Assembly (NCBI GenBank): GCA_029940535.1
Contig: JAPYUM010000009.1
Span: 13,607 to 77,606 of the forward strand
From: Vicinamibacterales bacterium
GTDB lineage: Bacteria > Acidobacteriota > Vicinamibacteria > Vicinamibacterales > UBA8438
Length of the DNA: 64,000 nucleotides
Direction: 5' to 3'
In this document: piece by piece, positions 17,575 to 50,964 of the stretch
Position numbering within the stretch: position 1 is the first letter of the stretch
Layout: each line of letters opens with the position of its first letter
Translations under genes and position numbers: made by a program
Notes under the pieces: model-generated
Told to the model about the DNA's origin: nothing
The model's database searches: none
What the model saw: the letters and a program-made list of their open reading frames with translations, nothing else

Positions 17575-18726
17575 ATGCCCAATCGAATGCAGACGGTGCT
17601 CAGGGTTCTCGGCGTGTGTGCCGGTGTCCTGGTTGCCCACTCGAGCACCTTTGCCCAGGGTGGCGCGGAGATACCTCGCACGTCGTCCGGTCATCCCGAT
17701 CTCTCCGGCTCGTATGACACCGCTACGGTGACCCCGCTGCAGCGGCCGCGTGCCTTCGGCGATCGGCTCACGTTGACGGCGGAAGAGGCGGCCATCGTCG
17801 CGTCCGATCCGGACGGGTTGGCCAGTACGTTCAATCTCGCTCCGGCGGGGTCGGATGAGCGACAGGCGGCACGTGAGGAGGCCCAGATCGCCGGGTTCGA
17901 AACTGGTGACGGCAACCGGGAAGCGCCACCGGCTGGGGGCGATGGGTCCGGCGGCGCCGCCGGCAACGTGGGTGGTTACAATACCTTCTGGATCGACCGT
18001 GGCGACGACGCCTTCCAGATCAATGGCGAGATTCGCACGTCCATCATCACGGACCCGCCGAACGGCCGACAGCCGCCTCGTACGGAGGCGAACCGGGCCG
18101 CGATGGCCGCCCGCGCCGGTTCCTTCCGTTCCAACAGCGGTACTGCGTGGTGGCTCGAAGACGATTTGAACGCGACCGGACCCTACGACCACCCCGAACA
18201 GCGCCCGCACGCTGAGCGGTGCCTGATGGGGTTCGGGTCGACGGCCGGTCCGCCGATGTTGTCGGTGCTGTACAACAACATGAAACGGATCGTGCAGACC
18301 GACGACACGGTCATGATTCTGGTGGAGATGGTGCACGACGCCCGCATCGTTCGGATGAACGCCGACCACAATCCGCCGGAGATTCGCAGTTGGTTGGGTG
18401 ACTCGGTTGGGCACTGGGAGGGCGACACGCTCATCGTCGACACCACGAACTTCACTGACAACCCCTCGCTGAGCGGCGCGTCACGCAATCTGCACGTGGT
18501 GGAGCGCTTCTCCCGGCTTGACGCTGACACGCTGCTGTACGGGTTCACGGTCGATGACCCGACCGTCTGGACTGCGCCGTGGAGCGGCGAGTATCCCTGG
18601 CCGTCTTCAGACAACAGGGTGTACGAGTACGCCTGCCACGAGGCGAACTACTCGTTTGGCGGAATTCTTCGGGGCGCGCGAGTGCTCGAGCAAGATGCTC
18701 GAGACGCGGCCGGCGCCCGCGACTGA
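17575..18726 (+). CDS. Secreted protein of an uncharacterised conserved family (paralog 1 of 4)
   Basis: GGAG RBS and a signal peptide. Shares HPDLSGSY, TSIITDPPNGRQPPR, ERC, GPPM, HWEGDTLIVDTTNF, VVERF and YEYACHEANY with the other three copies. It carries an extra Gly-rich insert. Confidence 0.85.
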   Translation: MPNRMQTVLRVLGVCAGVLVAHSSTFAQGGAEIPRTSSGHPDLSGSYDTATVTPLQRPRAFGDRLTLTAEEAAIVASDPDGLASTFNLAPAGSDERQAAREEAQIAGFETGDGNREAPPAGGDGSGGAAGNVGGYNTFWIDRGDDAFQINGEIRTSIITDPPNGRQPPRTEANRAAMAARAGSFRSNSGTAWWLEDDLNATGPYDHPEQRPHAERCLMGFGSTAGPPMLSVLYNNMKRIVQTDDTVMILVEMVHDARIVRMNADHNPPEIRSWLGDSVGHWEGDTLIVDTTNFTDNPSLSGASRNLHVVERFSRLDADTLLYGFTVDDPTVWTAPWSGEYPWPSSDNRVYEYACHEANYSFGGILRGARVLEQDARDAAGARD

Positions 18727-19201
18727 GTCCGTCGGACAAGACGTCCTTACGCACGTAGACGACGCCGGGTTCCCGGAGCGCTGCCACCGACTCCTCCTCG
18801 GTCATATCGTCACGCACGGCCGACTCAAACGGGTCGCCGTGAAACAGCTTGCCGTTCAGCGTCTCCATCGCCGTGTTGACGCGCATGTAGACGTGGGCCG
18901 GTGCCCGGTCCACGATGACTGTGATGCGTGTGTCGCGGACGAGAATGGCCCGCACGTTGGGCAGACTCCGCATACGTCGCACAAAACGTTTGAGTTGCCG
19001 GCGACGACGGTTTCTCACCCAGCGAAAGAGCAGGAGACCGACCACCGCCAACCCCAGCATCACTCCGACGTTGTTGACAGCAACGATCACCCACACCAGC
19101 ACTCCGACCACCAGGGCCGTGACCACCAAGCCGGTGGGCGCGGTCGGTAGGGTATCGCGCACCCAGTCCAGACCCCTCCGTACCCGCTCGTTGCCGGGCA
19201 A
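18545..19201 (-). CDS. Two-TM membrane protein of unknown function (start and C-terminus uncertain)
   Basis: The first canonical start is TTG. Two hydrophobic helices, an RRRR stop-transfer segment and a small soluble domain. The last ~60 codons overlap the convergent gene and look non-coding. Confidence 0.5.
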   Translation of the reverse strand: MPGNERVRRGLDWVRDTLPTAPTGLVVTALVVGVLVWVIVAVNNVGVMLGLAVVGLLLFRWVRNRRRRQLKRFVRRMRSLPNVRAILVRDTRITVIVDRAPAHVYMRVNTAMETLNGKLFHGDPFESAVRDDMTEEESVAALREPGVVYVRKDVLSDGLSRGRRPRLEHLARALARPEEFRQTSSSPRGRRTRTPCCLKTARDTRRSTAQSRRSGHRP

Positions 19202-19303
19202 CGCGCGCTGGACCCCGGAATCCAGGTCGTGCTTGAGCCGGCGCAGATCGTCGGCGAGCGCGGTGACCTGATTGAGCCGGTCCTGAGTCGGTCGTTCACG
19301 TTG

Positions 19304-22243: not shown

Positions 22244-22253
22244 CAGCCCGTGG
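22241..22253 (+). repeat. Copy 1 of exact 13-mer TAGCAGCCCGTGG (stop of the OadG-like ORF, 6 nt, GTG start of the beta subunit)
   Basis: Read directly from the sequence and identical to 26553-26565 and 62366-62378. Confidence 0.95.
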
Positions 22254-23353
22254 CCTTCTTCGAGCAACTCGGCATTCTGGCCGTCACCCCGGGCATGGTG
22301 GTGATGTGGCTGGTCGCCTTGACGTTGATCTATCTCGCGATCGGCCGGGAGTACGAGCCGCTCCTGCTGCTGCCGATCGGGTTCGGCGTCCTGGTCGCGA
22401 ATCTGCCACTCACTGGGTTGATGACCCCGGGCGAGGGGCTGATCTGGCGGTTCTATCACTACGGCGTGGAGTGGGAAGTCATTCCGCCGCTCATCTTTCT
22501 CGGGCTTGGCGCCCACACCGACTTCGGCCCGCTGCTGTCACAGCCACGGCTGATCTTTCTCGGCGCGGCCGCCCAGGGCGGTGTGTACGCGACGTTCTTC
22601 GCGGCGCAGGCATTCGGCTTCACGCTGCAGGAATCGGCGACGATCGGGATCATCGGCGGCGCCGACGGCCCCACCACCATTTTTCTGGCGGCCCAACTCG
22701 CGCCGCATCTCTTGGGTGCCTGCGCGGTCGCGGCGTATTCCTACATGGCGTTGGTGCCGATCATTCAACCGCCGATCATGCGACTGCTGACCACCGAGCA
22801 GGAACGCAAGATTCGCATGAAGAAGGCGCGCAAGGTGACGGCGCGAGAGAAGCTCTGGTTTCCGGTCACGGCCACCATCGTCATCCTGCTCCTGGTTCCG
22901 GCCTCGGCGCCGCTGATGGCGATGTTCATGCTGGGCAATCTGTTTCGCGAGTCGAAGGTGGTGGAGCGGTTGACCGACACGGCGCAGAACGCGCTGATGA
23001 ACATCACCACCATCTTTCTGGGAGTGGCCGTGGGCGCCACGATGAGCGCCGACGCCTTCCTGCGGGGCGACGTCATTTTTATCTTCGGGCTGGGGTTGGC
23101 GGCGTTTTGCGTCAGTACCGCGTGCGGGCTGCTGCTCGCCAAACTGATGAACCTGTTCACGAACGATAAGATCAACCCGCTGGTCGGTGCCGCCGGAGTT
23201 TCCGCCGTTCCGATGGCGGCACGGGTCGCCCACAAGGTGGGAGCCGAGGCGGACAAGAAGAACTATCTTCTGATGTTTGCGATGGGTCCCAACGTGTCCG
23301 GCGTCATCGGCACGGTGGTCGCGGCCGGTATTTTCTTGACGATGTTGGGGTAG
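22250..23353 (+). CDS. Na+-translocating decarboxylase beta subunit (OadB/GcdB/MmdB family)
   Basis: MAFFEQLGILAVTPGMVVMWLVALTLIYLAIGREYEPLLLLPIGFGVLVANLP aligns by eye with OadB N-termini. The protein is multi-TM throughout. Confidence 0.9.
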   Translation: MAFFEQLGILAVTPGMVVMWLVALTLIYLAIGREYEPLLLLPIGFGVLVANLPLTGLMTPGEGLIWRFYHYGVEWEVIPPLIFLGLGAHTDFGPLLSQPRLIFLGAAAQGGVYATFFAAQAFGFTLQESATIGIIGGADGPTTIFLAAQLAPHLLGACAVAAYSYMALVPIIQPPIMRLLTTEQERKIRMKKARKVTAREKLWFPVTATIVILLLVPASAPLMAMFMLGNLFRESKVVERLTDTAQNALMNITTIFLGVAVGATMSADAFLRGDVIFIFGLGLAAFCVSTACGLLLAKLMNLFTNDKINPLVGAAGVSAVPMAARVAHKVGAEADKKNYLLMFAMGPNVSGVIGTVVAAGIFLTMLG

Positions 23354-23405
23354 CTCGACAGGGTGACACGGGCCGCACCCGGTCTGCCCAGCGGGGGGAA
23401 GCGAC

Positions 23406-23621
23406 ATGGCAGAGGATGTATTGGCGCCGCTGGCCGGCAAAGTGCTGTCGGTGACCGTCGGCGTCGGGGACGTCGTCGAAGAGGACGATGAACTGCTGGT
23501 CCTCGAAGCGATGAAGATGGAGACCGTGGTGTACGCCCCGGCCGATGGCACGGTCAGCACAATCATGGCGCAGGTGGGTCAACAGGTCGAGGAAGACGAT
23601 CCTCTGATGACGCTGGGGTGA
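23406..23621 (+). CDS. Minimal biotinyl carrier domain protein (71 aa)
   Basis: LVLEAMKMETVV contains the E-A-M-K-M biotinylation motif. GGGGAAG RBS. Confidence 0.85.
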   Translation: MAEDVLAPLAGKVLSVTVGVGDVVEEDDELLVLEAMKMETVVYAPADGTVSTIMAQVGQQVEEDDPLMTLG

Positions 23622-23628
23622 GGAGACC

Positions 23629-24786
23629 ATGAATTTCGAGCTGACCGACGAACAGAGGCTGGTGCAGGAGACGGCCCGGGAGTTCGCGCGGAACGACATC
23701 GCGCCGACCCTGGCGGACGAAGAGAAGCGCCACGAATTCCGACTGGACCGGGTGGCCAGGATGGGCGACTTGGGCTTCTTTTCCTGCGGAGTGCCGGAAG
23801 AGTACGGGGGCACCGGATTCGGGTTCATGGAGTCGGTGCTGATGGCCGAACAAGTGGCCAAAGTGTCGGCGTCGTGGCGTTTGCCGTTCAACATGCAGAA
23901 CCTCGGCCCCGCCCTGACGGTGGCGAGATTCGGTAGCGACGAACAGAAGCAACGGTTCATCCCCGGGTGGGTGGACGGCACCCAGATTGGCTTTTTCGGC
24001 ATGACCGAGCCAGACAGTGGCTCTGACGTGGCCAGCATGAAGACCGTGGCTCGCGACATGGGCGACCACTGGGAGGTGACCGGTAGCAAGATCTGGGTCT
24101 CGAACGCGACGCAGGGCGACGCCGGACTTCTGTATGTGATGACAAATCCGGAGAAAAAGCACCGCGGCATGAGCGCGTTCATCCTGCAGCCGAAGGTCGT
24201 CGACGATTTCGTGGCCACTGACATCGAGACCAAACTCGGGTTGCACTGTGCGCCGACCGGTGAGATGGCGTTTCACGGGACAAAACTGCCCAAGGACGCG
24301 TTGCTTGGTCAGGCGGGCGATGGCTTCAAGATCTGCATGTGGCAACTGAACAACACGCGTATCGGCTGTGCGGCCGGGGCGCTGGGCGTGGCCGGGGCGG
24401 CGCTCGACGCGGCCGTCGAGTACGCCAATGAACGTACCCAGTTCGGGAAGCCCATCTCGCAGCACCAGATGGTGCAGGCGCAGATCGCCGAGATGGCGGT
24501 GGAGCACCACGCGGCGCAGTTGCTCGTGTATCGCGCCGCCTGGCTCAAGGACCACGGCAAGCCGAATCAGTACGAAACTTCCATGGCGAAGTTGCAGGCC
24601 TCCGAGGCCGCGGTGCACGCCGCCAACGAGTGCATGAAAATCTTCGGGTCGTACGGGTATTCCACGGAGTATCCGGCCGAGCGCTTGTATCGTGACGCCA
24701 AGTCTCTGCAAGTGGTCGAGGGCACCTCCAACGTGCAGAAGCTGATCATCGCGGGTATCGCGAGCGGTCACGTAGCCAATCGCTGA
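23629..24786 (+). CDS. Acyl-CoA dehydrogenase (FAD)
   Basis: The whole 385 aa look ACAD-like: TDEQRLVQETAREFARNDIAP, GMTEPDSGSD, YEGTSNVQ-like VEGTSNVQKLIIA. Confidence 0.9.
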   Translation: MNFELTDEQRLVQETAREFARNDIAPTLADEEKRHEFRLDRVARMGDLGFFSCGVPEEYGGTGFGFMESVLMAEQVAKVSASWRLPFNMQNLGPALTVARFGSDEQKQRFIPGWVDGTQIGFFGMTEPDSGSDVASMKTVARDMGDHWEVTGSKIWVSNATQGDAGLLYVMTNPEKKHRGMSAFILQPKVVDDFVATDIETKLGLHCAPTGEMAFHGTKLPKDALLGQAGDGFKICMWQLNNTRIGCAAGALGVAGAALDAAVEYANERTQFGKPISQHQMVQAQIAEMAVEHHAAQLLVYRAAWLKDHGKPNQYETSMAKLQASEAAVHAANECMKIFGSYGYSTEYPAERLYRDAKSLQVVEGTSNVQKLIIAGIASGHVANR

Positions 24787-24821
24787 CTGGTCCGCCGCCA
24801 CCTCACTCAAGGATCGACGCC

Positions 24822-26555
24822 GTGAAACCCTATTTCGACACGATGGACCCGTTCGGGAAGGCGCTGAAACCAGGACGCATCAAGCGCGCCGCCTCGAGCG
24901 CCGACGCGCTCCGTGAGGTCGAGGCCGGTATCGGCGAGGCGGTCACGGCCGCCCACGAGGTCGGGTTTCCCACCGAGAAGATCAACAAACGCGGGTGGAT
25001 GACCGTCTACCAGCGACTCGAGTATCTCGTGGACGCCGGTACCTGGTGTCCATTGCATACGCTCTACAACCCCCTGGAGAACGCAGAGGGCACCACCAAC
25101 GTCGTCGATGGCCTGGGACAGATCGACGGTCGGTGGGCGGTTGTCATCGGGTTCGACAACAAGGTGATGGCGGGTGCCTGGCTGCCCGGACAGTCGGAGA
25201 ACATCCTGCGAGCCACCGATCTGGCCGCGCGGTTGCACATCCCGCTGGTCTGGTTGGTCAACTGCAGCGGCGCCAAGCTGCCCGAGCAAGAAAAGTTCTA
25301 CGCCAATCGCCGCGGAGCCGGTACCCCGTTTTACCGCCACGCCGAGTTGGAGCAAGCGGGTATTCCGGTGCTGGCCGGGATCTATGGCACGAATCCGGCC
25401 GGCGGGGGATATCAGTCCATCAGTCCGACCATCCTGCTGGCTCACAAAGATGCCAACATGGCGGTCGGCGGCGTCGGCATCGTGTCCGGGATGGCGCCCA
25501 AAGGCGGATTCGACACGGCCATGGTCGAAGAGCTGATCGCGAAGGCGAATGCGTTCACCGGGCGTCCTCCCGGTGACGTGGCCACCCACCACGACGCCAC
25601 GGGGTTCTTCACGCGGGTCTACGACGAGGAGACCGGTGTCCTCGACGGGCTCAAGGACTACATGCGGGCCATGCCTGCCTACGGCGCGACGTTCTTTCAA
25701 GCGGCTGACCCGAAGGACCCGGCGTTTCCGATCGACGACCTGTACCACCTGCTGCCGGCGAATCCGAAGGAGGTCTACGACTTCGACGAGATCCTGGCCC
25801 GGCTGGTCGACGGCAGCGAGCGACTCGAATTTCGGCCCGACTACGGTCCCGAAGTGTTCACCGGCGTGTGCAAGATCGACGGACGACTCGTTGGGTGTAT
25901 CGGGAATCGTCAGGGGTACTTGGGGAAGGGCTATCCCGAATACGCCGACTATCCCGGCATGGGGGGCAAGCTCTATCGCCAGGGTCTCATCAAGATGAAC
26001 GAGTTCGTGGCTCTGTGCGGGCGCGACCGACTCCCGATCATCTGGTTTCAGGACACTTCAGGCATCGACGTCGGCGAGCTCGCTGAGAAAGCCGAAGTGC
26101 TGGGATTGGGGCAGGGTCTGATCTACTCGATTCAGCAGACCGATGTGCCGATGATGCTCGTCGTGCTGCGCAAGGGAACCGCCGCCGCCCACTACGTCAT
26201 GGGTGGCCCCACCGCCAATCGTCACAACGCCTTCAGCCTCGGCACCCCGGCCACCGAGATCGAGGTCATGCATGGCGAAACGGCGGCCGTGGCGACCTAC
26301 GCCCGACGCGCGGCCAAGGAGCAGGCGGCCGGTCGCTCGCTGGATCCGGTCATCGAGAAGATGAACGAACTCGTTGAGCGCTATCACGAGACCTCGCGAC
26401 CCGCGTATTGCGCGCAGCAGGGGTTCGTAGACGAAGTCGTCAAGCTCACCGAGCTCCGACGCTACCTACAGGCGTTCACCGGCGCCGTCTATCAGAACCC
26501 CACGTCAATCTGTCCCCGTCACCACATGCTGCTACCACGCGTGATACGGGGCTAG
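24822..26555 (+). CDS. Carboxyltransferase subunit (acyl-CoA carboxylase/decarboxylase family, GcdA/MmdA-like)
   Basis: 577 aa with two crotonase-like halves. GGAWLPG, GGGYQS and GPTANRHNAF-type motifs. Confidence 0.9.
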   Translation: MKPYFDTMDPFGKALKPGRIKRAASSADALREVEAGIGEAVTAAHEVGFPTEKINKRGWMTVYQRLEYLVDAGTWCPLHTLYNPLENAEGTTNVVDGLGQIDGRWAVVIGFDNKVMAGAWLPGQSENILRATDLAARLHIPLVWLVNCSGAKLPEQEKFYANRRGAGTPFYRHAELEQAGIPVLAGIYGTNPAGGGYQSISPTILLAHKDANMAVGGVGIVSGMAPKGGFDTAMVEELIAKANAFTGRPPGDVATHHDATGFFTRVYDEETGVLDGLKDYMRAMPAYGATFFQAADPKDPAFPIDDLYHLLPANPKEVYDFDEILARLVDGSERLEFRPDYGPEVFTGVCKIDGRLVGCIGNRQGYLGKGYPEYADYPGMGGKLYRQGLIKMNEFVALCGRDRLPIIWFQDTSGIDVGELAEKAEVLGLGQGLIYSIQQTDVPMMLVVLRKGTAAAHYVMGGPTANRHNAFSLGTPATEIEVMHGETAAVATYARRAAKEQAAGRSLDPVIEKMNELVERYHETSRPAYCAQQGFVDEVVKLTELRRYLQAFTGAVYQNPTSICPRHHMLLPRVIRG

Positions 26556-29208: not shown

Positions 29209-29255
29209 GATGTCTCGTTCTGCCTCTTGCGCCCACTGCTGGCAGTGGCGCGTGG

Positions 29256-30413: not shown

Positions 30414-30505
30414 GGCGGCACGATACACTACAATTCCAGACAACGAACACCATCGAACGCGGGACGTCGCGCGGTTGCGCGCCTCGCGCACCAGGAGATT
30501 GCAAA

Positions 30506-31627: not shown

Positions 31628-31640
31628 TATACTACCTATA
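31628..31640 (+). promoter_or_regulatory. TATACT -10-like box 6 nt upstream of the vapB ATG (possible leaderless transcript)
   Basis: gaTATACTacctatATG is read directly from the sequence. No SD sits at functional spacing. Confidence 0.3.
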
Positions 31641-34129: not shown

Positions 34130-34227
34130 GGCAGCCTCCTCGGGACAGTACCTAGAGATACAAAACGGGCCGACGCTGGAGGTCTTGCCAGCATCGGCCC
34201 GTGCCAACGACGGAATTCGGTCTAAGG

Positions 34228-35229
34228 CTACGGACGCAACTTACGACCCTGTCTCTCGAGTTCACGCGCGCCGGCCAGAATGCCGTGCATGCCGATGTTG
34301 CCTTCGTGACAGGCATACTCGAACAGGGGGCCGTCCGTGCGCCGGAACGGCATCATCACCGTGAACGGAGCGGTGTAGACCGTCGGGTCCGTCACGGTGT
34401 ACTCGTAGACCACTCTGTCCGCATTGACCCGGGTGAACCGCTCGACCAGATGCTTGTTGGGGCTGGTGCCGCGGCTTTCGCCCCCACGGAACTGGTCGGT
34501 CTCGACAACCATCGTGTCGCCTTCCCAGTGACCACGCGAGACGCCGGAGAACTGCTTGAACGGCGGTTTGGCGACATCGTCAATCGGGATGACCCGCGCG
34601 TTGTGCACCATCTCGTTGAGAATCACGAGGTGGTCTGGCGTCTGAAAGATCATGACGTTGTTGTTGTAGGCGCCCGACGACATCGGCGGGCCGGCGTTGA
34701 ACCCCATGATGCAGCGGTCCATCATGCTGCGGCTGGTATACGAGTCGTACCGGGCCGCGTTGCGCTCGTCCTCGGCTTCTTCGCTCTGTTCCCTCGGCGC
34801 CCTCACCCCGGGCACGCGTGGTGGCAGCCGTCCATTCGGCGGATCGACGACGAGCGAGGTCCGCTTGTCGTCGGTCAAGTCGATTCCGCGCTCGTACCAA
34901 AATTCGTTGTAGGAGAGCACGCCGCCCTCGGATCGAGGCTGATATCCAGCGCTTCGTGCGCCCGATTCGGGATCGAACAGGTCGCGATTCTGACGAGTGC
35001 GCTCCGACGCCTCGAATGCGGCCGCCGCCTCGGCCGACAGCGTTTCCTGGTCCTCGAACTGCCGAGGGCGCTGGTATGGCGTCAGTGTGCGAAACGTAAA
35101 AATCCCGGAGATGTCCGGCTGGCCATCTGGCCGGCGCATCGGCGCGTCGCTCTGGGCGTCGGCCGCGATCGGTGCCAGGGTCACGACAAGGGCCACCATG
35201 AACACGAGCGCGACGAATTTCTTGATCAT
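34228..35229 (-). CDS. Secreted protein of the uncharacterised family (paralog 2 of 4)
   Basis: GAGGAA RBS and a signal peptide. QPDISGIF, RTSLVVDPPNGRLPPR, DRC, GPPM, HWEGDTMVVETDQF, LVERF and FEYACHEGNIGM motifs. Confidence 0.85.
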   Translation of the reverse strand: MIKKFVALVFMVALVVTLAPIAADAQSDAPMRRPDGQPDISGIFTFRTLTPYQRPRQFEDQETLSAEAAAAFEASERTRQNRDLFDPESGARSAGYQPRSEGGVLSYNEFWYERGIDLTDDKRTSLVVDPPNGRLPPRVPGVRAPREQSEEAEDERNAARYDSYTSRSMMDRCIMGFNAGPPMSSGAYNNNVMIFQTPDHLVILNEMVHNARVIPIDDVAKPPFKQFSGVSRGHWEGDTMVVETDQFRGGESRGTSPNKHLVERFTRVNADRVVYEYTVTDPTVYTAPFTVMMPFRRTDGPLFEYACHEGNIGMHGILAGARELERQGRKLRP

Positions 35230-38456: not shown

Positions 38457-39470
38457 ATGCGTAGCATCGTGCTCGTCGCCGCGGTCCTGTTTCTGGCCGT
38501 TCCCACCGTCGCGCGGTCCCAGGCTCCCGAGTCGTGGACCATACCGCGCACCCCGGATGGTCGACCCGATCTGCAGGGCCTTTGGACGACGCAGACATTT
38601 ACGCCGCTCCAGCGTCCCCCGCAGTTTGCCGGCCAGGAGTTCTTGACAGAGGATGAGGCCGCGTCACTGGCCGACGTGTTGACCGCCCCGGGTGTCGATC
38701 CGCTGCGCGGCCGAGCGTTCGCCGACGCGTTGGGCGATGACGCTGGGGCGCGAGACGGGGCCACGGTCCAGACGGATCCGACGCACTACGACAACTCGGT
38801 CTGGCTGCGGACACTGGACCCCAAAGGGCTGACGAGTCGGCGCACGTCGCTGATCGTCGATCCCCCGGATGGCCGGCTCCCGGCCCGGACCGAGGACGCC
38901 GCGGTACTGGCCGCCATGCGACGCGAGGCGCGGGGATTCGACAGCTACGAGAACCGGCCCGCCCAGGAGCGGTGTCTGGCCTGGAGCCACGAGGGTCCGC
39001 CGATGATGCCGCCACCCTACAACGACCTGTATCAAATTTTTCAGACCCCCGGCTATGTCGTCCTGTTCCCTGAAATGGCGAACAACCCGGCGCGCATCAT
39101 CTCCACCGACAATCGCGCCCACGTGTCGGACCGGATCCGTCAGTGGCCGGGGCACTCGGTGGGTCGATGGGACGGTGATACCCTCGTGGTCGACACCACG
39201 AACTTCACCATGAAGACTGGTTTCCAAGGCTCTGGCGACGGGTTGCATGTGGTCGAGCGATTCACCCGGGTCGCCGACGACCAGATTCGCTACGAGTTCA
39301 CGGTCGACGATGCGACAACGTGGACCCGGCCGTGGACCGTCGAGATGCCGATGATGCAGTCGGAAGGCCCCCTGTACGAATACACGTGTCACGAAGGGAA
39401 CTACGGCATGAGGAACACCATGCGAGGGGCACGCCTGGCCGACCGGCAGGCGGCCGACGGCCAGCGGTGA
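38457..39470 (+). CDS. Secreted protein of the uncharacterised family (paralog 3 of 4)
   Basis: AGGAGGG RBS and a signal peptide. RPDLQGLW, RTSLIVDPPDGRLPAR, ERC, GPPMM, RWDGDTLVVDTTNF, VVERF and YEYTCHEGNYGM motifs. Confidence 0.9.
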   Translation: MRSIVLVAAVLFLAVPTVARSQAPESWTIPRTPDGRPDLQGLWTTQTFTPLQRPPQFAGQEFLTEDEAASLADVLTAPGVDPLRGRAFADALGDDAGARDGATVQTDPTHYDNSVWLRTLDPKGLTSRRTSLIVDPPDGRLPARTEDAAVLAAMRREARGFDSYENRPAQERCLAWSHEGPPMMPPPYNDLYQIFQTPGYVVLFPEMANNPARIISTDNRAHVSDRIRQWPGHSVGRWDGDTLVVDTTNFTMKTGFQGSGDGLHVVERFTRVADDQIRYEFTVDDATTWTRPWTVEMPMMQSEGPLYEYTCHEGNYGMRNTMRGARLADRQAADGQR

Positions 39471-40927
39471 GCCGCCGACATCTCGCCTGGTCGTTGGTCG
39501 TGGTGGCGGCGCTCAGCACCGCGCTGTGCGCCCCGACGACGGATCGTGCCTGGCTGCCGGGCGACTCGCACATCCATAGTCATTGGAGCGCCGGTGCCGA
39601 CCGACGCCGGACACCGCCGACCCCCATCAAGGGACAGGACGCGCTGTATTCCACGCCGCGTAACGCGGTCATGGCACGCCAGTTCGGATTGCGCTGGATG
39701 GTGACCACGGACCATGGCGGCCCCGACCACGCGAAGCTGAATTTCATGCAGGCGCATCGGGAGCTCACGCTCTCTCGCGAGCTTGTGCCGGACCTGTTGC
39801 AGTTCTACGGCATGGAGCTGAACATGCCCGGCATGGATCACCACACCCTGATCATTCCCAACGCCGACGACGAAGCGACGGTGCTGCGCGAGATCGAGAG
39901 CCGGTTCGACGCGAACCAGGACTGGGCCCTGCCGCCCGATCCGGGGCGGCGGTCCGCCGAAGCGCGCCGGCGGGCACTGGCACATCTGCAATCGCTGGAG
40001 CGACTCCCGGTGCTGTTTGCCAATCATCCATCTCGGTCGGCGACCGGGATCGGGAAGTACGGCCTCGACGAGCCGTGGGAAATCCGCGAGAACAACGATC
40101 TGGCGTCTGATGTGTATAGGGGGATGGAGGGGGCACCGGGGCATCAAGCGTCGACACTGTCAGCCGACGGTAGCCGGCGGCCCGATCCACCAAGGGGACC
40201 ACCGCCAGGCCGAGGCGCCTATCGGAACCCCAACGCCCCGACCTTCGGCGGATTCGATCAAATGACAGCCAAGGTTGGCGGGTTCTGGGACTCGTTGTTG
40301 GGTGAGGGCCGCCGGTTCTGGGTCGTCGCCTCGTCCGACTCGCACGTGCACTACACGGACCCCGTGCGGCGGGGATCGGACTTCTGGCCGGGCGAGTTCC
40401 ACAAGACCTATGTGCTGGCCCGGCCCACATATGACGATGTCCTCGATGGATTGCGCCAAGGACGCGTCTTCGCGGCGGCGGGTGGCCTGGTGACCACGCT
40501 CGACGTCTCCGCCGCCGCTGGAGGGCGGCAGACCGGGGTTGGCGGTACGCTAGACGCGGCCGCGTCCGATTCTGTAGACGTGACCATACGGTTCACCGAT
40601 CCCGAGATAGAGAACGCCGCTGGTGAGGACCCGACGGTCCGACGAGTCGACCTGATCGTGGGCGAGACGCGCGGCCCGGCGTCGGCCCCACACCGTGATT
40701 GGAACTGGACCACGAAAGTCGTCGCACGATTCGGCCCGGCGGACTGGACGCGTGACGGCGACCGCTACACCGTGACCACCTCGTTGCCGGCCTCTGACGA
40801 GGACCGCTACCTTCGCGTGCGGGGCACCAGCACCGAGGCCCTCGAGCCAGCCCCTGATGAGCCGGGCGAGAACCCCTGGCACGACCTCTGGTTCTACTCG
40901 AACCCGATCTTCATCGAGGTCGAGTAG
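39467..40927 (+). CDS. PHP-domain / CehA-McbA-like metallohydrolase, exported
   Basis: The GTG start overlaps the stop of paralog 3 (GTGA). Hydrophobic leader. GDSHIHSHWS and VTTDHGG look like PHP-type metal ligands. The fold assignment is tentative. Confidence 0.7.
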   Translation: MSRRHLAWSLVVVAALSTALCAPTTDRAWLPGDSHIHSHWSAGADRRRTPPTPIKGQDALYSTPRNAVMARQFGLRWMVTTDHGGPDHAKLNFMQAHRELTLSRELVPDLLQFYGMELNMPGMDHHTLIIPNADDEATVLREIESRFDANQDWALPPDPGRRSAEARRRALAHLQSLERLPVLFANHPSRSATGIGKYGLDEPWEIRENNDLASDVYRGMEGAPGHQASTLSADGSRRPDPPRGPPPGRGAYRNPNAPTFGGFDQMTAKVGGFWDSLLGEGRRFWVVASSDSHVHYTDPVRRGSDFWPGEFHKTYVLARPTYDDVLDGLRQGRVFAAAGGLVTTLDVSAAAGGRQTGVGGTLDAAASDSVDVTIRFTDPEIENAAGEDPTVRRVDLIVGETRGPASAPHRDWNWTTKVVARFGPADWTRDGDRYTVTTSLPASDEDRYLRVRGTSTEALEPAPDEPGENPWHDLWFYSNPIFIEVE

Positions 40928-41792: not shown

Positions 41793-44700
41793 ATGCGGAT
41801 GAGTCTTCGACGGTGTTCGGCGTTGCTGGCGGTGCTGGTGCTCGGTGGCGGCGCTCAGTCCGGCGGCGTGGGTGTCGCATGGGCGCAGGGGCCGGACTCG
41901 ACGGTCACGTTCAATCGTGATGTTCGGCCGATCCTCGCGGAGGGTTGTTACAACTGTCACGGGCCGAACGCCCCCACGCGGCAGGACGGGCTGCGGTTGG
42001 ATATTCCCGAAGGACCGCTCGCCGATCGTGGACGCTACGGTGGGCCGGTCATCGTGCCGGGCAACGCTGACGAGAGCCTGCTGATGCAGCGGGTCACCCA
42101 TGAGAGTGACAGCGCCCGGATGCCGCGAGGGCGCGCCGCGCTGCCGGACGACCAGATCGAGACGCTGCGTCGATGGATCGACCAAGGGGCGGAGTATCAG
42201 CCCCACTGGGCGTTCATCGCGCCCGAGCGCGTGGCGCCGCCGGCTGTGTCAGATGCCGAATGGCCTCGGAACTCCATCGATAATTTTCTGCTCGCCCGGC
42301 TCGAACAGGAAGGGCTGGCGCCGGCAGACGAGGCTGATCGCGCGACGCTGCTCCGTCGGGTGACCCTCGACCTCAGCGGCGTGCCGCCGACCCCGGCCGA
42401 ACTGACCGAGTTTCTGAACACGGACGCGGCTGACGCTTACGAGCAAGTGGTCGACCGGTTGTTGGACTCACCGCGCTACGGCGAGCGGATGGCGGCCGAG
42501 TGGCTCGATGCCGCACGCTATGCCGACACCAATGGGTATCAGACCGACGGGGAACGGCAGATGTGGCGATGGCGCGACTGGGTCATCGACGCCTACAACC
42601 ACAACATGCCGTTCGACCAGTTCACGATCGAGCAACTCGCGGGCGACATGCTGCCGGACGGGACCCTCGAGCAGAAAATCGCCACCGCCTTCAACCGGAA
42701 TCACAGCCAGAACGGCGAGGGAGGTATCGTCTCGGACGAATTCCTGCTCGAGTATGCGGTCGATCGGGTCGCCACGACCGGGACGGTGTGGATGGGACTC
42801 ACGCTGGGGTGTGCGCGTTGCCACGACCACAAGTTCGACCCGATCACGCAAAAAGAGTTCTACGAGGTCCTGGCCAACTTCAACAACATTCCGGAGCGCG
42901 GGAAGGCCTTCAAGTATGTCAATTCGCCGCCGCTGGTGACCGCCCCGACCCTCGAACAGCAGGCGGAGATCGGCGAACTGGATGCGGAGTTGATCGAAGC
43001 GCGCGCGGCGCTGACAGCGCTCGATGCGGACGCCGCCGCAGCCCGAGCGGAGTGGGAGGCGTCGCTCGCCTCTGCGGGTCGCGTCGACTGGTCGCTCCGA
43101 GACGGGTTGCTCGCCTATCACGCGTTTGAAGGCGACCTGGCGGGCACGCAGACGACGGTCGATATTCCGGCGGTCCTCGAAGACGGGCAGCCATCTTTCG
43201 TGCCGGGTCGGGTCGGCACCGCGGCCAGCTTTGACGGCGAGCGATTCGTCAACGCCGGGACCAGCCCCGACCTCGGCTATGACGACGCGTTCAGCCTGGC
43301 GGCGTGGATTTACCCGACCGCGTCCGACGGCGTCATCGTCTCGCGCGCGAGCGCCGGAGACCAGGGCGAGGTCGGGTGGGGTCTCTACCTCGAGGATGGC
43401 AAGGTTCGACTGAGTCTGTCCACGCGGGTGCTCGACGATGGCGTCGCGGCGGAGACGACCGTCGACGTCGTGCTGAATCAGTGGCAGCACGTGGTGGCGA
43501 CCTACGACGGGTCGAAGACGCCGGGTGGTATGCGGGTCTATTTCGATGGCGTGGCGCAAGCGTTGACGCCGCTCCTGGACCTGGTCGGCAACCGCCTGCC
43601 GATGCGTTATCCGCTCCGCATCGGGGCCAGCGGCTCGGACAAGCCACGCTTCCAGGGGCACATCGACGACCTGCGTATCTACGACCGCGTGTTGCCGGCG
43701 CTCCACGCCGCCGTGGTTGCGACCCCGGAGCCGATCAGCGACATTGCGGCAATGGCTCCGGCCCAGCGCGACGCCGCGCAGGCCGAGAAGTTGCGGCTGG
43801 CCTTTTTTACGCAGTACGCGCCGACCGAGATCCTGGCCGCATCGCGCGCCGTCAGCGAGCTCGAGCGTCAGCGCGAGGCCCTGTGGGCCACCTATCCGAC
43901 CGTCATGGTGATGGAAGAGATGGCGGAGCGTCGTCCGACGTTCCGGCTCAATCGTGGCGCCTACGATAGCCCGGCCGAGGAGGTCTTCCCGGGGGTGCCC
44001 GCGGCGTTGCCGCCCTTGCCGGCGGGGACCGAGGCCAACCGACTCTCGTTCGCGAAGTGGCTCGTCGACCCGGCGCATCCGTTGACCGCGCGGGTGACCG
44101 TGAATCGGTTTTGGCAGATGTACTTCGGCACCGGCATCGTCAAGACCGCCGAGAACTTCGGGACCCAGGGTGAGTTTCCGACCCACCCGGCGTTGCTGGA
44201 CTGGCTGGCGACTTCGTTCATCGACTCCGGGTGGGACGTCAAGGCCCTGCAACGGGCGATTGTCAACAGTGCCGCTTACCGGCAGGCCTCGAACATGACG
44301 CCGGCGGAGTTCGAGCGCGACCCGGAGAACCGTCTTGTGGCGCGAGGCCCGCGTCTTCGACTCGACGCGGAGATCATTCGAGACCAGGCCCTGTCGCTGT
44401 CCGGCCTCCTCGTCGAGGAGGTGGGGGGGCCGTCCGTGAAGCCATACCAGCCTGAGGGGCTGTGGACCGACATGGTGGAAGGCGGCTACGGCGACTATGT
44501 CGAGGCCGAGGGGGATGATCTTTATCGTCGCAGTCTGTACACCTTCTGGAAGCGGACCCTGGGCCCGCCCACGATGATGACCTTCGACTCGTCCACGCGC
44601 GAAGTCTGTATCGTGCGGACCGGCGTCACGAACACGCCGATGCAGGCGCTCAGCCTGATGAACGACGTGACCTACGTCGAGGCGGCACGCCGACTGGCGG

Positions 44701-44981
44701 AGCGGATGATGACCGAGGGGGGTGAGACGCCGGACGAGCGCATCGCGTACGCCTACCTGCTGGCGACGGCACACCGGCCCCCGCCACGGGCGGCGGACAT
44801 TCTCGTCCAAGGCTACGGCCGTCATTTCGAGCGCTACCAGGCCGACCGGGCGGCGGCGCTGGCGCTGGTGACCCAGGGACAGTCCGTCCGCGATCAGACC
44901 CTGGACGTCGCGGAGCTGGCGTCCTACACGATGGTGGCCAATCTCATTCTGAATTTCGACGGAACCATTACAAAGGAATAG
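41793..44981 (+). CDS. PSCyt1 haem-c + DUF1549 + LamG-like + DUF1553 giant secreted protein
   Basis: FNRDVRPILAEGCYNCHGPN provides a CxxCH haem site. DNFLLARLE is DUF1549-like. The central block (WQHVVATYDG...IDDLRIYDRVL) is concanavalin/LamG-like. The C-terminal part (TNTPMQAL) is DUF1553-like. Confidence 0.9.
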   Translation: MRMSLRRCSALLAVLVLGGGAQSGGVGVAWAQGPDSTVTFNRDVRPILAEGCYNCHGPNAPTRQDGLRLDIPEGPLADRGRYGGPVIVPGNADESLLMQRVTHESDSARMPRGRAALPDDQIETLRRWIDQGAEYQPHWAFIAPERVAPPAVSDAEWPRNSIDNFLLARLEQEGLAPADEADRATLLRRVTLDLSGVPPTPAELTEFLNTDAADAYEQVVDRLLDSPRYGERMAAEWLDAARYADTNGYQTDGERQMWRWRDWVIDAYNHNMPFDQFTIEQLAGDMLPDGTLEQKIATAFNRNHSQNGEGGIVSDEFLLEYAVDRVATTGTVWMGLTLGCARCHDHKFDPITQKEFYEVLANFNNIPERGKAFKYVNSPPLVTAPTLEQQAEIGELDAELIEARAALTALDADAAAARAEWEASLASAGRVDWSLRDGLLAYHAFEGDLAGTQTTVDIPAVLEDGQPSFVPGRVGTAASFDGERFVNAGTSPDLGYDDAFSLAAWIYPTASDGVIVSRASAGDQGEVGWGLYLEDGKVRLSLSTRVLDDGVAAETTVDVVLNQWQHVVATYDGSKTPGGMRVYFDGVAQALTPLLDLVGNRLPMRYPLRIGASGSDKPRFQGHIDDLRIYDRVLPALHAAVVATPEPISDIAAMAPAQRDAAQAEKLRLAFFTQYAPTEILAASRAVSELERQREALWATYPTVMVMEEMAERRPTFRLNRGAYDSPAEEVFPGVPAALPPLPAGTEANRLSFAKWLVDPAHPLTARVTVNRFWQMYFGTGIVKTAENFGTQGEFPTHPALLDWLATSFIDSGWDVKALQRAIVNSAAYRQASNMTPAEFERDPENRLVARGPRLRLDAEIIRDQALSLSGLLVEEVGGPSVKPYQPEGLWTDMVEGGYGDYVEAEGDDLYRRSLYTFWKRTLGPPTMMTFDSSTREVCIVRTGVTNTPMQALSLMNDVTYVEAARRLAERMMTEGGETPDERIAYAYLLATAHRPPPRAADILVQGYGRHFERYQADRAAALALVTQGQSVRDQTLDVAELASYTMVANLILNFDGTITKE

Positions 44982-44983
44982 CG

Positions 44984-46441
44984 ATGGAATCGCGCCTCGA
45001 CCAGTTGCTCGCCCGTCGACGCTTCCTCGAGTTGGCCGGTACCGGCATCGGCTCAGCCGCGCTGGCCTCGCTGTTCGGCCAGGACCTGCTGGCGCAGACG
45101 TCAGGCGCGACATCGGCCGCCGTTGGTGCGTTGCCCGGGTTGCCGCACCATGCCCCGAAGGCGAAGCGGATCATCTATCTGTTTCAGTCGGGGGCGCCGT
45201 CACAGCACGAGCTCTGGGACTACAAGCCGACGCTGCGGGAGCGGATGGGCGAAGATCTGCCGCCATCGGTACGTGGCGATCAGCGTGTGACCACCATGAC
45301 GGCGGGCCAAGAGCGCTTTCCGCTGGTGCCGTCAAAGTTCAGGTTCGCGCAGCACGGTCAGTCGCGGGCCTGGGTCAGCGACCTGATGCCGCACACCGCC
45401 AAGATCGTCGATGAACTGTGCTTCATCAAGTCGATGCACACCGAGGCGATCAACCACGACCCCGGTATTACCTTCTTTCAGACCGGAGCGCAGTTGGCCG
45501 GCCGCCCCAGCATGGGCGCCTGGCTGTCCTACGGCCTCGGGAGTCTGAACTCCGACCTGCCGACCTTCGTGGCGCTGGTCTCGAAGGGGTCGGCGCAAAC
45601 CGGTCAGCCGCTCTACGACCGACTCTGGGGCAGCGGGTTTCTCCCCTCGCGGTATCAGGGCGTGAAGTTTCTTTCGACCGGCGACCCGGTCCTCTATCTG
45701 TCGAATCCGCCAGGGGTCGATCAGGACACGCGCCGCCGTTTTCTCGACGACCTGGGCGCCCTCAACGGTCTGAAAGAGGAGGAGTTCGGCGACCCCGAGA
45801 CGAGCACGCGTATCTCCCAGTACGAGATGGCGTATCGCATGCAGACCTCCGTGCCTGAACTGGCCGACCTGTCGGATGAACCGGAGAGCACCTTCGAGCT
45901 CTACGGACCCGATGCGCGTGAGCCCGGCACCTTCGCTCGCAATTGTCTCCTGGCCCGACGACTGGCCGAGCGCGACGTGCGTTTTGTGCAGTGCTTTCAC
46001 CGTGGGTGGGATCAGCACACCCGGCTGCCTCAGGGCATCGAGCGGCAGGCGCAGGACGTTGATCAGGCCCAGGCGGCGCTCGTGCAGGACCTGAAGAATC
46101 GCGGGATGCTGGATGACACCCTTGTCGTCTGGGGTGGCGAGTTCGGTCGCAGCGCCTACAGCCAGGGGGTCCTGACCGAGGAGACCTACGGGCGCGACCA
46201 TCACCCCCGCGCGTTCACCATCTGGATGGCGGGTGGGGGGGTCAAGCCGGGCATCACTTACGGCGAGACCGATGAGTTCTCCTACAACATCACCAGCAAT
46301 CCGGTGCATATCCATGACCTGCACGCCACCATGCTGCACCTGCTCGGTATCGACCACACCAAGCTGACCTATCCGTTCCAGGGACGTAACTTCCGACTGA
46401 CCGATGTGTCCGGACGTGTCGTGCAGGACGTCCTAGCCTAG
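44984..46441 (+). CDS. DUF1501 (sulfatase/phosphatase-fold) protein with TAT leader
   Basis: LLARRRFLELAGTGIGSAALASL twin-arginine leader. GGEFGR, GRDHHP and HIHDLHATMLHLLGIDH motifs. Starts 2 nt after the upstream gene. Confidence 0.9.
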   Translation: MESRLDQLLARRRFLELAGTGIGSAALASLFGQDLLAQTSGATSAAVGALPGLPHHAPKAKRIIYLFQSGAPSQHELWDYKPTLRERMGEDLPPSVRGDQRVTTMTAGQERFPLVPSKFRFAQHGQSRAWVSDLMPHTAKIVDELCFIKSMHTEAINHDPGITFFQTGAQLAGRPSMGAWLSYGLGSLNSDLPTFVALVSKGSAQTGQPLYDRLWGSGFLPSRYQGVKFLSTGDPVLYLSNPPGVDQDTRRRFLDDLGALNGLKEEEFGDPETSTRISQYEMAYRMQTSVPELADLSDEPESTFELYGPDAREPGTFARNCLLARRLAERDVRFVQCFHRGWDQHTRLPQGIERQAQDVDQAQAALVQDLKNRGMLDDTLVVWGGEFGRSAYSQGVLTEETYGRDHHPRAFTIWMAGGGVKPGITYGETDEFSYNITSNPVHIHDLHATMLHLLGIDHTKLTYPFQGRNFRLTDVSGRVVQDVLA

Positions 46442-48094: not shown

Positions 48095-48131
48095 CGTGTC
48101 TGTCAGTGGGTCGTTGCCGTTGTGCCGCGGG

Positions 48132-49238: not shown

Positions 49239-49263
49239 GGCCCGTCTCGTGCGTAGCGTCGTT

Positions 49264-49806
49264 TTAGGGGGTGACGTAGCCGACGGCGAATTCCTTCAGC
49301 CGTTCGCTCCGGAGACCGATGCCTTCGGCCTCCGCCATGGCGCGGTCCTGGGCCCAGCCGTCTTGCTTGACCCGCTTGATGAACCACATGGCGCCCACGC
49401 GGTTCGCCGAGGCGCAGTGAATGTAGGCCGGCTGGTTCGCGCTGTCGGCGATGGCGGACAGGAACTCTTCGGTCGTCTCGTCGGTCGGCGCCCGAAACGG
49501 GATGTGGATGTAGTTCAGTCCCGCCGCGGTCGCCGCGCTCTGACTGGCCCCGATATTGGCGCCTTCCTCCTCGGCGGTGCGGAAGTTGATGACCGACGCG
49601 AAGCCGAGCGCCTTGATGGCCGGCATCGCCTCGGCCGGGGTCGCCCCGGCGCACGCCACGGTGGCGTCGACCCGCGTGTAGTTCACAACGCCTTCGGGGG
49701 CCTCGTCCTGGGCGCCAACGACGATGGGACCGACGGTGAATGCCAGCAGGGCCGCGAAGAGACAGCCACTCAGGGCCGGTCGCGAGTTCTGGGGAAGGCG
49801 TGACAT
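49264..49806 (-). CDS. DUF442 / PTP-like (beta-lactamase hydrolase-like) protein, exported
   Basis: Signal peptide. GFASVINFR, and IHCASANRVG fits the CX5R phosphatase/sulfur-transferase-like loop. Confidence 0.75.
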   Translation of the reverse strand: MSRLPQNSRPALSGCLFAALLAFTVGPIVVGAQDEAPEGVVNYTRVDATVACAGATPAEAMPAIKALGFASVINFRTAEEEGANIGASQSAATAAGLNYIHIPFRAPTDETTEEFLSAIADSANQPAYIHCASANRVGAMWFIKRVKQDGWAQDRAMAEAEGIGLRSERLKEFAVGYVTP

Positions 49807-49992
49807 GGCAACTCTCCTCGAATGCGGGTTAAGGGTGCGGGCCGCCCAGTGACGGCCAATATGATTCCTGTCACGATATCATTTTCACTTGAGACGACGC
49901 CTCCAGGGTGACGCCGGTCGCGCTCAGCGGCGCCTGGACGTGAGAGAATTGTGTCGAGATCTCGGCATGCGATCTGTTTCAGGGAGAGACAC

Positions 49993-50964
49993 ATGAGGAC
50001 GCGGACTGACGGCGCGCGATCGGTGGTGCGGATGGTGTCCGGTTTGATTGCGGGACCGGTGCTAGCCGCGGTGGCGGCGGTATTGATTGCGCCGGACGTG
50101 GCGGTCGGTCAAACTGGCCCCCGAGACCTGCAGGGCGTCTGGGATTTTCGAAGCGTGGTGCCATTCGAACGACCTGACGAGCTGGTCGGGAAAGACACCT
50201 TGACCCCGGAAGAGGCGGCCGCGTTCGCCCAGGAGCGTGTGGACGCGCTGAACGTCGATTTGCGGCGTGACGAGAATGGCCGGGTGCCACTGTCGGGGGG
50301 CTACAACAATTTCTGGTACGACCGCGGGAACTCGCTCGGTGATGAGCGTCGCACCTCATTGGTGGTGGATCCGCCCGATGGGAAGCTGCCAGCCCGGACC
50401 GAGGCGGCGCGGGCCAGAGGCGCCGCGCGAGGCGCGCTCCTGGGTCGTGACGCGTTTGGTCCGGAAGACCGAGGCGCGTTCGAGCGCTGTATTCTCGGGT
50501 TCAACTCCGGTCCGCCCATGAATCCCAGCGCCTACAACAACAACATGCAGCTGTTTCAGACCGACAATCACATCGTCATCCTGAACGAGATGGTCCACGA
50601 CTCGCGCATCATCCCGCTCGATGGGTCAGCGCATCTCCCAGGCGATGTCCGTCAATGGATGGGCGACTCTCGCGGCCGCTGGGACGGCGACACGCTGGTG
50701 GTGGAGACTCGTAACTTCACCGGGAAGACCAGTGTCCGTGGGTCGGGCCCGGAGATGCGGCTGGTCGAGCGATTCACCCGGGCCGACGCCGACACGCTCG
50801 TCTACGAATACACCGTCAGCGACCCCGCGTCATTCGCGCAACCGTGGTCGGTCAGGACCGCCATGCGCAAGTCGGACGCGCAGGTCTACGAGTACGCATG
50901 CCACGAAGGCAACTACGGCATGCAGAACCTGCTGGTTGCCGCCCGCGGCGCCGAGCAGCCGTAG
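49993..50964 (+). CDS. Secreted protein of the uncharacterised family (paralog 4 of 4)
   Basis: AGGGAGAG RBS and a signal/anchor segment. PRDLQGVW, RTSLVVDPPDGKLPAR, ERC, GPPM, RWDGDTLVVETRNF, LVERF and YEYACHEGNYGM motifs. Confidence 0.9.
   Translation: MRTRTDGARSVVRMVSGLIAGPVLAAVAAVLIAPDVAVGQTGPRDLQGVWDFRSVVPFERPDELVGKDTLTPEEAAAFAQERVDALNVDLRRDENGRVPLSGGYNNFWYDRGNSLGDERRTSLVVDPPDGKLPARTEAARARGAARGALLGRDAFGPEDRGAFERCILGFNSGPPMNPSAYNNNMQLFQTDNHIVILNEMVHDSRIIPLDGSAHLPGDVRQWMGDSRGRWDGDTLVVETRNFTGKTSVRGSGPEMRLVERFTRADADTLVYEYTVSDPASFAQPWSVRTAMRKSDAQVYEYACHEGNYGMQNLLVAARGAEQP

Follow-up and report, generated by a model that had tools for sequence, protein, structure and literature searches.

An unnamed family of exported proteins with a predicted calycin-like barrel, present in four copies on a Vicinamibacterales contig

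Four exported paralogs in the window

A 64,000-nucleotide stretch of a Vicinamibacterales contig (JAPYUM010000009.1, positions 13,607 to 77,606; hereafter the window) carries four genes for members of one exported protein family, which is very large, yet named in no database or paper searched. Counted from the first letter of the window, paralog A lies at 17575..18726 on the plus strand (383 amino acids), paralog B at 34228..35229 on the minus strand (333 amino acids), and paralogs C and D at 38457..39470 (337 amino acids) and 49993..50964 (323 amino acids), both on the plus strand. All four open reading frames (ORFs) end in stop codons, and the mechanical ORF list of the window leaves room for alternative upstream starts at TTG 17560 in A, ATG 35307 in B and GTG 49951 in D. 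Identical contigs with the same gene order are present in several NCBI metagenome assemblies, and the public gene calls on them give B 333 and C 337 amino acids, which agrees with the starts used in an earlier reading of the same DNA (the original prediction). The G+C content of the window is uniform, at 63-67%.

That earlier reading took the four genes to be homologous, which was borne out by the ORF list and by every comparison made. Pairwise BLASTP among A to D returned E values of 1e-64 to 4e-85 with 37-45% identity over nearly the full length, and a family hidden Markov model (HMM) run against the six-frame translation of the window recovered exactly these four copies. In a MAFFT alignment of the four, 68 columns are invariant and insertions and deletions fall in loop regions; the invariant columns include Cys216, Cys354 and His355 (A numbering), confirming that two cysteines and an adjacent histidine occur in all four copies. 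The cysteine codons are at 18220-18222 (Cys216) and 18634-18636 (Cys354) in A, at 34711-34713 (Cys173) and 34309-34311 (Cys307) on the minus strand in B, at 38973-38975 (Cys173) and 39387-39389 (Cys311) in C, and at 50488-50490 (Cys166) and 50899-50901 (Cys303) in D, with the histidine next to the second cysteine in each case (His355 in A, His308 in B and His312 in C). The ordered set of shared motifs described in the original prediction is conserved in position, whereas some of its regular expressions are slightly too strict for A, C and D. Paralog A, which exceeds the other copies in length and has additional loop insertions behind the first helix and ahead of the ERC motif, carries the variants RTSIITDPPNGRQP, YNNMKRIVQT and HWEGDTLIVDT; paralog C carries YNDLYQIFQT and EMANNPARII; and the PDL motif of paralog D is without its Pro.

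All four proteins open with a basic N-terminus, followed by a hydrophobic stretch and a cleavage-type site of the small-x-small pattern. Judged by eye and from the N-terminal helix in AlphaFold models, the signal peptides are MPNRMQTVLRVLGVCAGVLVAHSSTFAQ in A, MIKKFVALVFMVALVVTLAPIAADAQ in B, MRSIVLVAAVLFLAVPTVARSQ in C and MRTRTDGARSVVRMVSGLIAGPVLAAVAAVLIAPDVAVGQ in D, the last with a long N-region ahead of its hydrophobic core. Neither a twin-arginine motif nor a lipobox occurs in these N-termini. The sequences are consistent with A to D being Sec-exported (periplasmic or secreted) proteins and thus with the export that had been proposed for them.

The duplications that produced the four copies are not recent. 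The closest relatives in other genomes are 59% identical to A (L012), 79% to B (an ortholog on the Vicinamibacterales chromosome OY282382.1), 93% to C (whose orthologs span 70-93%) and 60% to D (whose closest relatives elsewhere span 56-60%). At the DNA level, partial stretches alone align among A to D, at 66-71%, with one 75-nt stretch at 76% and one 34-nt stretch at 85%, and the longest exact word common between copies is 21 nt. Since each window copy is nearer to relatives in other genomes than to its paralogs in the window, these identities show that the four copies predate the divergence of the compared genomes and that the duplications, as judged by sequence divergence, are ancient. This agrees with the original prediction, which had argued against recent duplication. 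From the ancient divergence of the copies, we infer that the four have probably diversified in function.

Conserved residues and predicted fold of the family

That the family is not assignable to any named domain, as the original prediction had stated, was upheld by searches of Pfam-A, NCBIfam and the PDB. Paralogs A to D have no Pfam-A match at E<0.1, and when 71 diverse members were compared with Pfam-A at E<=10, no Pfam family was matched by more than two of them, the best E value being 0.01. The sole NCBIfam match of A to D is spurious (E 0.13, and 12.6 bits where the cut-off is 80), and sequence searches of the PDB with profiles of 4 and 142 sequences found no relative, returning one chance match at E 0.42. 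A precomputed Pfam domain is present on none of 240 homologs among the matches listed, and every source or NCBI name of the homologs listed reads 'hypothetical protein'. The motif string 'CHEGN' retrieved author names alone from the literature. A confident match of all four proteins to a characterised enzyme family, which the original prediction had set as its own refutation, was looked for throughout and did not occur.

The size of the family is apparent from two kinds of search. Word-indexed searches scored more than 8,000 clusters at 90% identity in each, and an exhaustive profile search of 1.84 billion representatives yielded 23,965 clusters at 50% identity with E<=1e-3, 11,943 of them with E<=1e-10. 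The best 80 genomic loci are all from metagenome-assembled genomes (MAGs), mostly of Vicinamibacterales. Among these 80 loci, the other carriers within the Acidobacteriota are Bryobacterales, Terriglobia and Thermoanaerobaculia, and the gammaproteobacterial carriers are Pseudohongiella, Porticoccaceae, 'Ca. Multivorans' and 'Ca. Rariloculaceae'. One locus (L046, CAMCRC010000007.1) is labelled 'MAG: Klebsiella pneumoniae' and holds two copies of a kind usual in Acidobacteriota or in Gammaproteobacteria from the environment; its label is probably wrong, or the bin contaminated. Three rare fusions were also seen, each either real or an artefact of gene calling: a tandem double family domain of 643 amino acids (P0271), an extension at the N-terminus that contains squalene-cyclase-like repeats and a CVSCH motif of the heme-c type (P0159), and a C-terminal Lipocalin_5 domain (P0197). 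They were considered as Rosetta stones and set aside as too sporadic to interpret.

Conservation was measured over 478 full-length members collected from all searches and loci, which are mutually 35-45% identical. Both cysteines are present in 478 of 478 members and the adjacent histidine in 465 (97%), so that the alignment check named with the original prediction comes out in its favour well beyond the window. The mature region contains exactly two cysteines in 454 members (95%), four in 23 and five in one. In B numbering, which we use for the family from here on, R54, G133 and G229 are invariant, R172, E206, R212, E263, E309 and N311 are more than 99% conserved, and conservation above 97% extends to a polar set of R54, R172, Q196, E206, R212, W235, E263, R264, Y275, D281, E304, H308, E309 and N311. 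The Met of the GPPM motif is 70% conserved. CXXCH and CXXC motifs are absent, the two cysteines being about 135 residues apart. A divergent short subfamily of about 270 amino acids (L149 4001-4810, L115 4098-4907, L104 4222-5037, L103 3632-4447, L106 3184-3996 and L163 5102-5920) keeps both cysteines and retains E263, R264, W235, R212, Y275, D281, E304 and E309. In these proteins the histidine is replaced by Val or Pro, CHEGN becomes C[VP]EF, and the RTSLIVDPPDGR block and first helix region are missing. The one short form scanned against Pfam (L149 4001-4810) had no match.

From these patterns we infer, strongly, that the cysteine pair forms one structural disulfide and not a Cys/His metal site. 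Both cysteines are invariant and cysteine counts are even in all but one member; exported proteins with disulfides are expected to show just such even numbers, and Sec-type export would put folding in an oxidising compartment. In addition, the short subfamily keeps both cysteines while losing the histidine, which argues for a disulfide over a metal site. The disulfide would staple the pre-barrel loop that bears the ERC motif to the start of the C-terminal helix, and the histidine is part of a polar cluster specific to the long form. The original prediction had left the choice between a disulfide and a metal or cofactor site; the even counts and the subfamily without the histidine narrow it to the former and disfavor the latter.

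A metal or cofactor site would have the two cysteines and the histidine, together with a Glu or Met, bind Cu, Zn or heme in a metallochaperone or redox protein, possibly one that works with DUF6152, a protein family discussed below. The three residues are indeed invariant in the long form, DUF6152 (with its H1, H2, D9 and N-P-H residues) is a tight operon partner in other genomes, and Cu2_monoox_C-like genes lie in 8-9 of 79 loci. We nevertheless consider this reading unlikely, given that 95% of the mature proteins have exactly two cysteines and the extra ones elsewhere are paired, that Val or Pro stands for the histidine in the short subfamily, and that the GPPM Met is poorly kept. The signal peptides are also of the Sec type and not the Tat (twin-arginine) type, and the window holds no DUF6152. 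Three specific readings of the Cys/His motif were considered and rejected: heme c and CXXC redox chemistry, by the missing motifs and the wide spacing of the cysteines, and a type-1 copper (cupredoxin-like) ligand set, by the variable Met and the histidine replacement.

Two AlphaFold2 models give a view of the fold. Paralog C (m4cd525308da9), run with an alignment of 50 sequences, reached a predicted local distance difference test score (pLDDT) of 74.9 and a predicted template modelling score (pTM) of 0.75; paralog B (m9a2ab2cd4b04), run with 142 sequences, reached 81.5 and 0.78. Despite the different alignments, the two models have the same order of secondary structure. Both begin with the signal helix, which is followed by a wrap of about 150 N-terminal residues made of extended, highly conserved segments, with the motifs PDLxGxW, TPLERP and RTSLIVDPPDGRxP, and variable loops between them. 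In the B model, pLDDT is 93-98 at residues about 31-80 and 120-140, and the intervening variable loops are of low confidence. Eight consecutive antiparallel beta-strands at residues 191-297 of B are predicted as a barrel, on which both models agree, and a 24-residue C-terminal helix starts at the histidine of the CHEGN motif.

Structure prediction followed by Foldseek, the route that the original prediction had named, was taken for B and C and returned calycin-type barrels as weak matches. Against the PDB, neither model had a match at E<=1e-3 and none covered the whole protein. The best matches were CRABP2, CRBP, FABP, tardigrade SAHS and streptavidin, which cover the barrel region alone over 114-139 columns, with E values of 1.4e-3 to 1e-2, template modelling (TM) scores of 0.43-0.49 (target) and 0.2 (query), and probabilities as high as 1.0. 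A search of BFVD gave nothing better, with an avidin-family protein again present. On these models, the core is predicted to be a calycin-like eight-strand barrel within a whole architecture that appears to be without a solved counterpart.

The predicted barrel bears on a second alternative, in which the protein is a passive carrier that, in the manner of FABPs, lipocalins and avidins, takes a small ligand of hydrophobic or amphipathic nature, or else a scavenged cofactor, for example pyrroloquinoline quinone (PQQ), through the periplasm without catalysis. The sole structural relatives are ligand carriers, several conserved Arg residues and one Trp could hold a planar ligand bearing a carboxylate, PQQ dehydrogenases are frequent neighbours of family genes, and the Lipocalin_5 domain of P0197 is appended to a family member. 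However, conservation above 97% of about 14 polar and charged residues in divergent paralogs is more typical of catalytic machinery, and up to nine copies per locus are hard to fit with a single shared cargo. The family also has no profile similarity to Lipocalin_5 (PF13924), and kinship with it was rejected when hhalign of A4 against the P0197 domain gave a probability of 0.2%. A passive carrier is an unlikely reading.

Genomic surroundings and the DUF6152 cassette

Each window copy has its own set of neighbours. Immediately before paralog A is a gene whose product has an SLT lytic-transglycosylase domain. About 580 bp downstream of A, a gene with an FGE-sulfatase domain is encoded on the other strand, and between the two is a minus-strand ORF (18545-19201). 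The SLT gene, together with the exported barrel and predicted disulfide, recalls small periplasmic barrel proteins that inhibit lysozyme, and on this ground the family could serve the cell envelope without catalysis, as a structural protein, an inhibitor or a chaperone. We regard this as very improbable. Within the window the SLT context is found for A alone, no SLT-type cluster appeared among the recurrent neighbour clusters scanned in other loci, the family proteins are three times larger than known barrel inhibitors, and such a role would leave the conserved polar constellation unexplained.

Paralog B is preceded by Sel1-repeat and FG-GAP/ASPIC genes and followed on the same strand, after a 20-nt gap, by an amidohydrolase gene (32840-34207, minus). 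The stop codon of paralog C overlaps by 4 nt (ATGA-type) the start of a gene for a 486-amino-acid CehA/McbA-type metallohydrolase (39467-40927, plus), whose product has an N-terminal DSHIHSH motif, a below-cut-off NCBIfam CehA/McbA match and no Pfam match. This metallohydrolase was considered as a partner of the family and dropped, as it is not recurrent beside family genes in the other loci compared. Downstream of it come a TauE gene and then a pair formed by a PSCyt1/PSCyt2/PSD1 gene (DUF1549/DUF1553, with a Laminin_G_3 insert) and a DUF1501 gene (41793-46441, plus). Paralog D is followed after 15 nt by a PSCyt1/PSD2-5/PSCyt3 gene (DUF1592/DUF1588 and further domains; 50980-53001, plus) and then a DUF1552 gene (53001-54359, plus). 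The two sets, at 41793-46441 and 50980-54359, are 'planctomycete-type' gene pairs to which no function is assigned.

Elsewhere in the window are two PQQ-dehydrogenase homologs (27151-29463, minus; 60518-62368, plus), one of which also matches TIGR04528 'acido-empty-quinoprotein' below its cut-off, and exported beta-propellers of the NHL six-blade and FG-GAP/ASPIC types (29256-30491 and 36644-38329, both minus), as well as one gene of the glyoxalase fold and others of the metallo-beta-lactamase fold. An 82-amino-acid ORF that overlaps a 133-amino-acid ORF by 4 nt (31640-32280, plus) lies between the glyoxalase-fold gene and the block of amidohydrolase and B; this pair is a probable toxin-antitoxin module, because the 133-residue product is called a PIN-domain protein on the identical contigs. 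A further cluster at 22250-26555 (plus), with a Na+ pump gene of the oxaloacetate-decarboxylase beta-subunit type, a small ORF, an acyl-CoA dehydrogenase and a carboxyltransferase, resembles a membrane decarboxylase operon of the glutaconyl- or methylmalonyl-CoA type and is unrelated to the family.

Across genomes, neighbours were clustered from all ORFs within 10 kb on either side in 80 genome loci, and 120 family genes were called in 79 of these loci. Family genes most often have a further member of the family as their co-directional neighbour. A MAG of 'Ca. Rariloculaceae' (L053, OZ245000.1, 1049-21179) shows the most extreme expansion seen, with nine copies of the family and four of DUF6152 packed into about 21 kb. 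Counted up to 10 kb from family genes, PQQ dehydrogenases occur in 22-26 of the 79 loci, NHL propellers in 10-11, PSD and DUF1552 pairs in 9-11 and Cu2_monoox_C-like genes in the 8-9 mentioned above, and proteins of the metallo-beta-lactamase and serine beta-lactamase folds and amidohydrolases also recur. NHL propellers adjoin family genes in both Acidobacteriota and Gammaproteobacteria, and further propeller neighbours are of the GSDH and Vgb-lyase/SGL types. Two apparent neighbour clusters were discarded: a 'DUF6152' cluster of 21 loci, which consists mostly of same-strand out-of-frame shadow ORFs over family genes plus one real DUF6152, and a cluster 'unk408', which is an antisense shadow of PQQ genes.

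The abundance of PQQ dehydrogenases raises the question of whether the family provides an accessory subunit of these or other propeller dehydrogenases, as an electron acceptor, an assembly factor or a loader of lanthanide or PQQ. Tight co-directional pairs exist in both gene orders, with gaps of 1 nt (L079), 9 nt (L062) and 26 nt (L065) and further cases in L074 and L032, and the L062 dehydrogenase scores above the NCBIfam cut-off for the methanol/ethanol family. About one PQQ-dehydrogenase gene per 50 kb surrounds family genes in two independent locus sets (genome and metagenome), and other neighbours are propellers as well (NHL, GSDH, Vgb_lyase/SGL and FG-GAP/ASPIC). However, a within-locus slot shuffle expects 8.4 adjacencies against the 12 observed, no window copy adjoins a PQQ dehydrogenase (B comes closest, at a distance of about 4.8 kb), most family members are flanked by unrelated genes, and the family proteins are without a redox cofactor motif. 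Published surveys of Acidobacteria PQQ and XoxF clusters mention other small hypothetical proteins and nothing of this size or motif, and a literature search for 'acido-empty-quinoprotein' returned no match. By the within-locus shuffle, as distinct from a genome-wide base rate, the link to PQQ dehydrogenases is at most suggestive, and the accessory role itself is improbable.

DUF6152 (PF19649) is the one neighbour that passes the shuffle test. In the genome loci, which include Vicinamibacterales, Bryobacterales and one gammaproteobacterium, 8 of 9 DUF6152 genes adjoin a family gene against 2.8 expected, and 7 of the 8 are co-directional with it. The reverse test, a metagenome scan with a DUF6152 alignment, returned 80 loci and 72 DUF6152 genes with informative upstream sequence, in a set skewed to one clade and 60-94% identical to the query. 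A family gene on the same strand ends just upstream of 60 of these 72 (83%), the partner being a long form in 47 and a short form in 13; among the other 12, several either represent a second DUF6152 copy of one cassette or are closely followed by a family gene. A recurrent order is short form (about 270 amino acids), long form and DUF6152, found in loci L090-L169 (for example L115 4098-6387, L149 4001-6399 and L104 4222-6405) and also in L053, L061, L085, L086 and L088. Genes downstream of the cassette vary and include NHL and Vgb-lyase-type propellers, a tannase, a luciferase-like monooxygenase and an ABC transporter. This operon link between the family and DUF6152 is new here.

Mature DUF6152 proteins are about 110 amino acids long and start with HH[SA]F.AEFD directly after the predicted cleavage site, with H1, H2, D9, an N-P-H motif, a Trp and a Glu invariant. 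The His-His start, together with the N-P-H motif, Trp and Glu, suggests a metal site resembling those with an N-terminal histidine, as far as residue patterns can indicate. No solved structural relative of DUF6152 was found, nor any mention of it in the literature searched. Fusions of the two genes were not seen, and family members linked and unlinked to DUF6152 are intermixed by similarity. In the window, HMM and motif scans found no DUF6152, including no remnant downstream of A, and the six-frame search with the family HMM found no short form; the window copies are stand-alone long forms outside the cassette. One could imagine the long form, the short form and DUF6152 as subunits of a new periplasmic enzyme system, in which DUF6152 would bring an N-terminal-His metal centre (copper 'histidine-brace'-like, for example) and the barrels would bring substrate-specific pockets, the window copies being a radiation of that subunit, catalytic or carrier, by which Acidobacteriota of soil and sediment would handle various organic substrates. 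We offer this as a speculation with little chance of being right.

Possible role and comparison with known systems

The reading that we tentatively prefer, with a probability of roughly 0.4 that attaches mostly to its descriptive part, is that the family forms a cofactor-independent periplasmic ligand-processing module, an enzyme or at least a protein that specifically binds a small polar or anionic molecule. In this proposal, the 14 near-invariant polar residues would together form one constant site, in the barrel or next to it, for binding or for acid-base catalysis, and the ligand would be a small, probably anionic or polar organic molecule. The length-variable loops (about residues 80-120 and 140-170) may give each paralog its own specificity. 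A constant site with variable loops is suggested because the polar residues are more than 97% conserved while insertions and deletions fall in the loops. The module may feed or follow the exported oxidoreductases and hydrolases with which it clusters, such as PQQ dehydrogenases, NHL-type propellers, amidohydrolases and beta-lactamase-fold esterases; in other genomes many members would act together with DUF6152, and the four window copies would work without such a partner.

Four points weigh against this proposal. The match of the barrel to calycins is weak, with a best E value of 1.4e-3 and TM scores below 0.5, and salt bridges with a structural role could account for the invariant charged residues equally well. 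The neighbours of A to D differ from copy to copy and indicate no specific pathway, and adjacency to PQQ dehydrogenases exceeds the shuffled expectation by the small amount given above.

The case for the family rests on its size, its conservation pattern, the absent annotation and its cassette with DUF6152, and what we describe is a well-defined 'dark' family, a target for characterisation rather than a demonstrated new mechanism. Abundant bacteria of soil, sediment and sea (Vicinamibacterales, Bryobacterales and relatives of Pseudohongiella and Porticoccaceae) carry it in multiple copies, it clusters with exported oxidoreductases and hydrolases that act on organic matter beyond the cytoplasm, and it regularly shares operons with DUF6152, itself an orphan Pfam family. 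Tens of thousands of genes would gain an annotation once a function is assigned, and a new chemistry or carrier system of the periplasm could come to light in phyla that are poorly cultured.

Among known proteins, the calycins (FABP, CRABP and CRBP, SAHS, avidin and streptavidin, and the lipocalins) are the nearest in predicted shape, sharing an antiparallel up-and-down barrel of about 115-140 residues. A G-x-W element (G233-x-W235) and an Arg/Tyr pair on the barrel strands presumably recall calycin signatures. The family differs from calycins in having no sequence or profile similarity to them, in being 2-3 times larger, with the 150-residue N-terminal wrap and the long C-terminal helix, in its invariant cysteine pair, the putative disulfide, which calycins lack, and in the richness of its conserved positions in polar and charged residues. 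DUF6152 is, like the family, Sec-exported, uncharacterised and genomically coupled to it, but is a different protein. The PSCyt/PSD proteins (DUF1549/DUF1553 and DUF1592/DUF1588) with their DUF1501 or DUF1552 partners and the 'acido-empty-quinoprotein' PQQ-dehydrogenase homologs (TIGR04528), all represented in the window, are likewise large multi-copy sets of exported proteins of unassigned role in Acidobacteriota and Planctomycetota, and they often cluster with the family. Both of these are unrelated to the family in sequence and fold, and both, in contrast to it, have Pfam or NCBIfam models.

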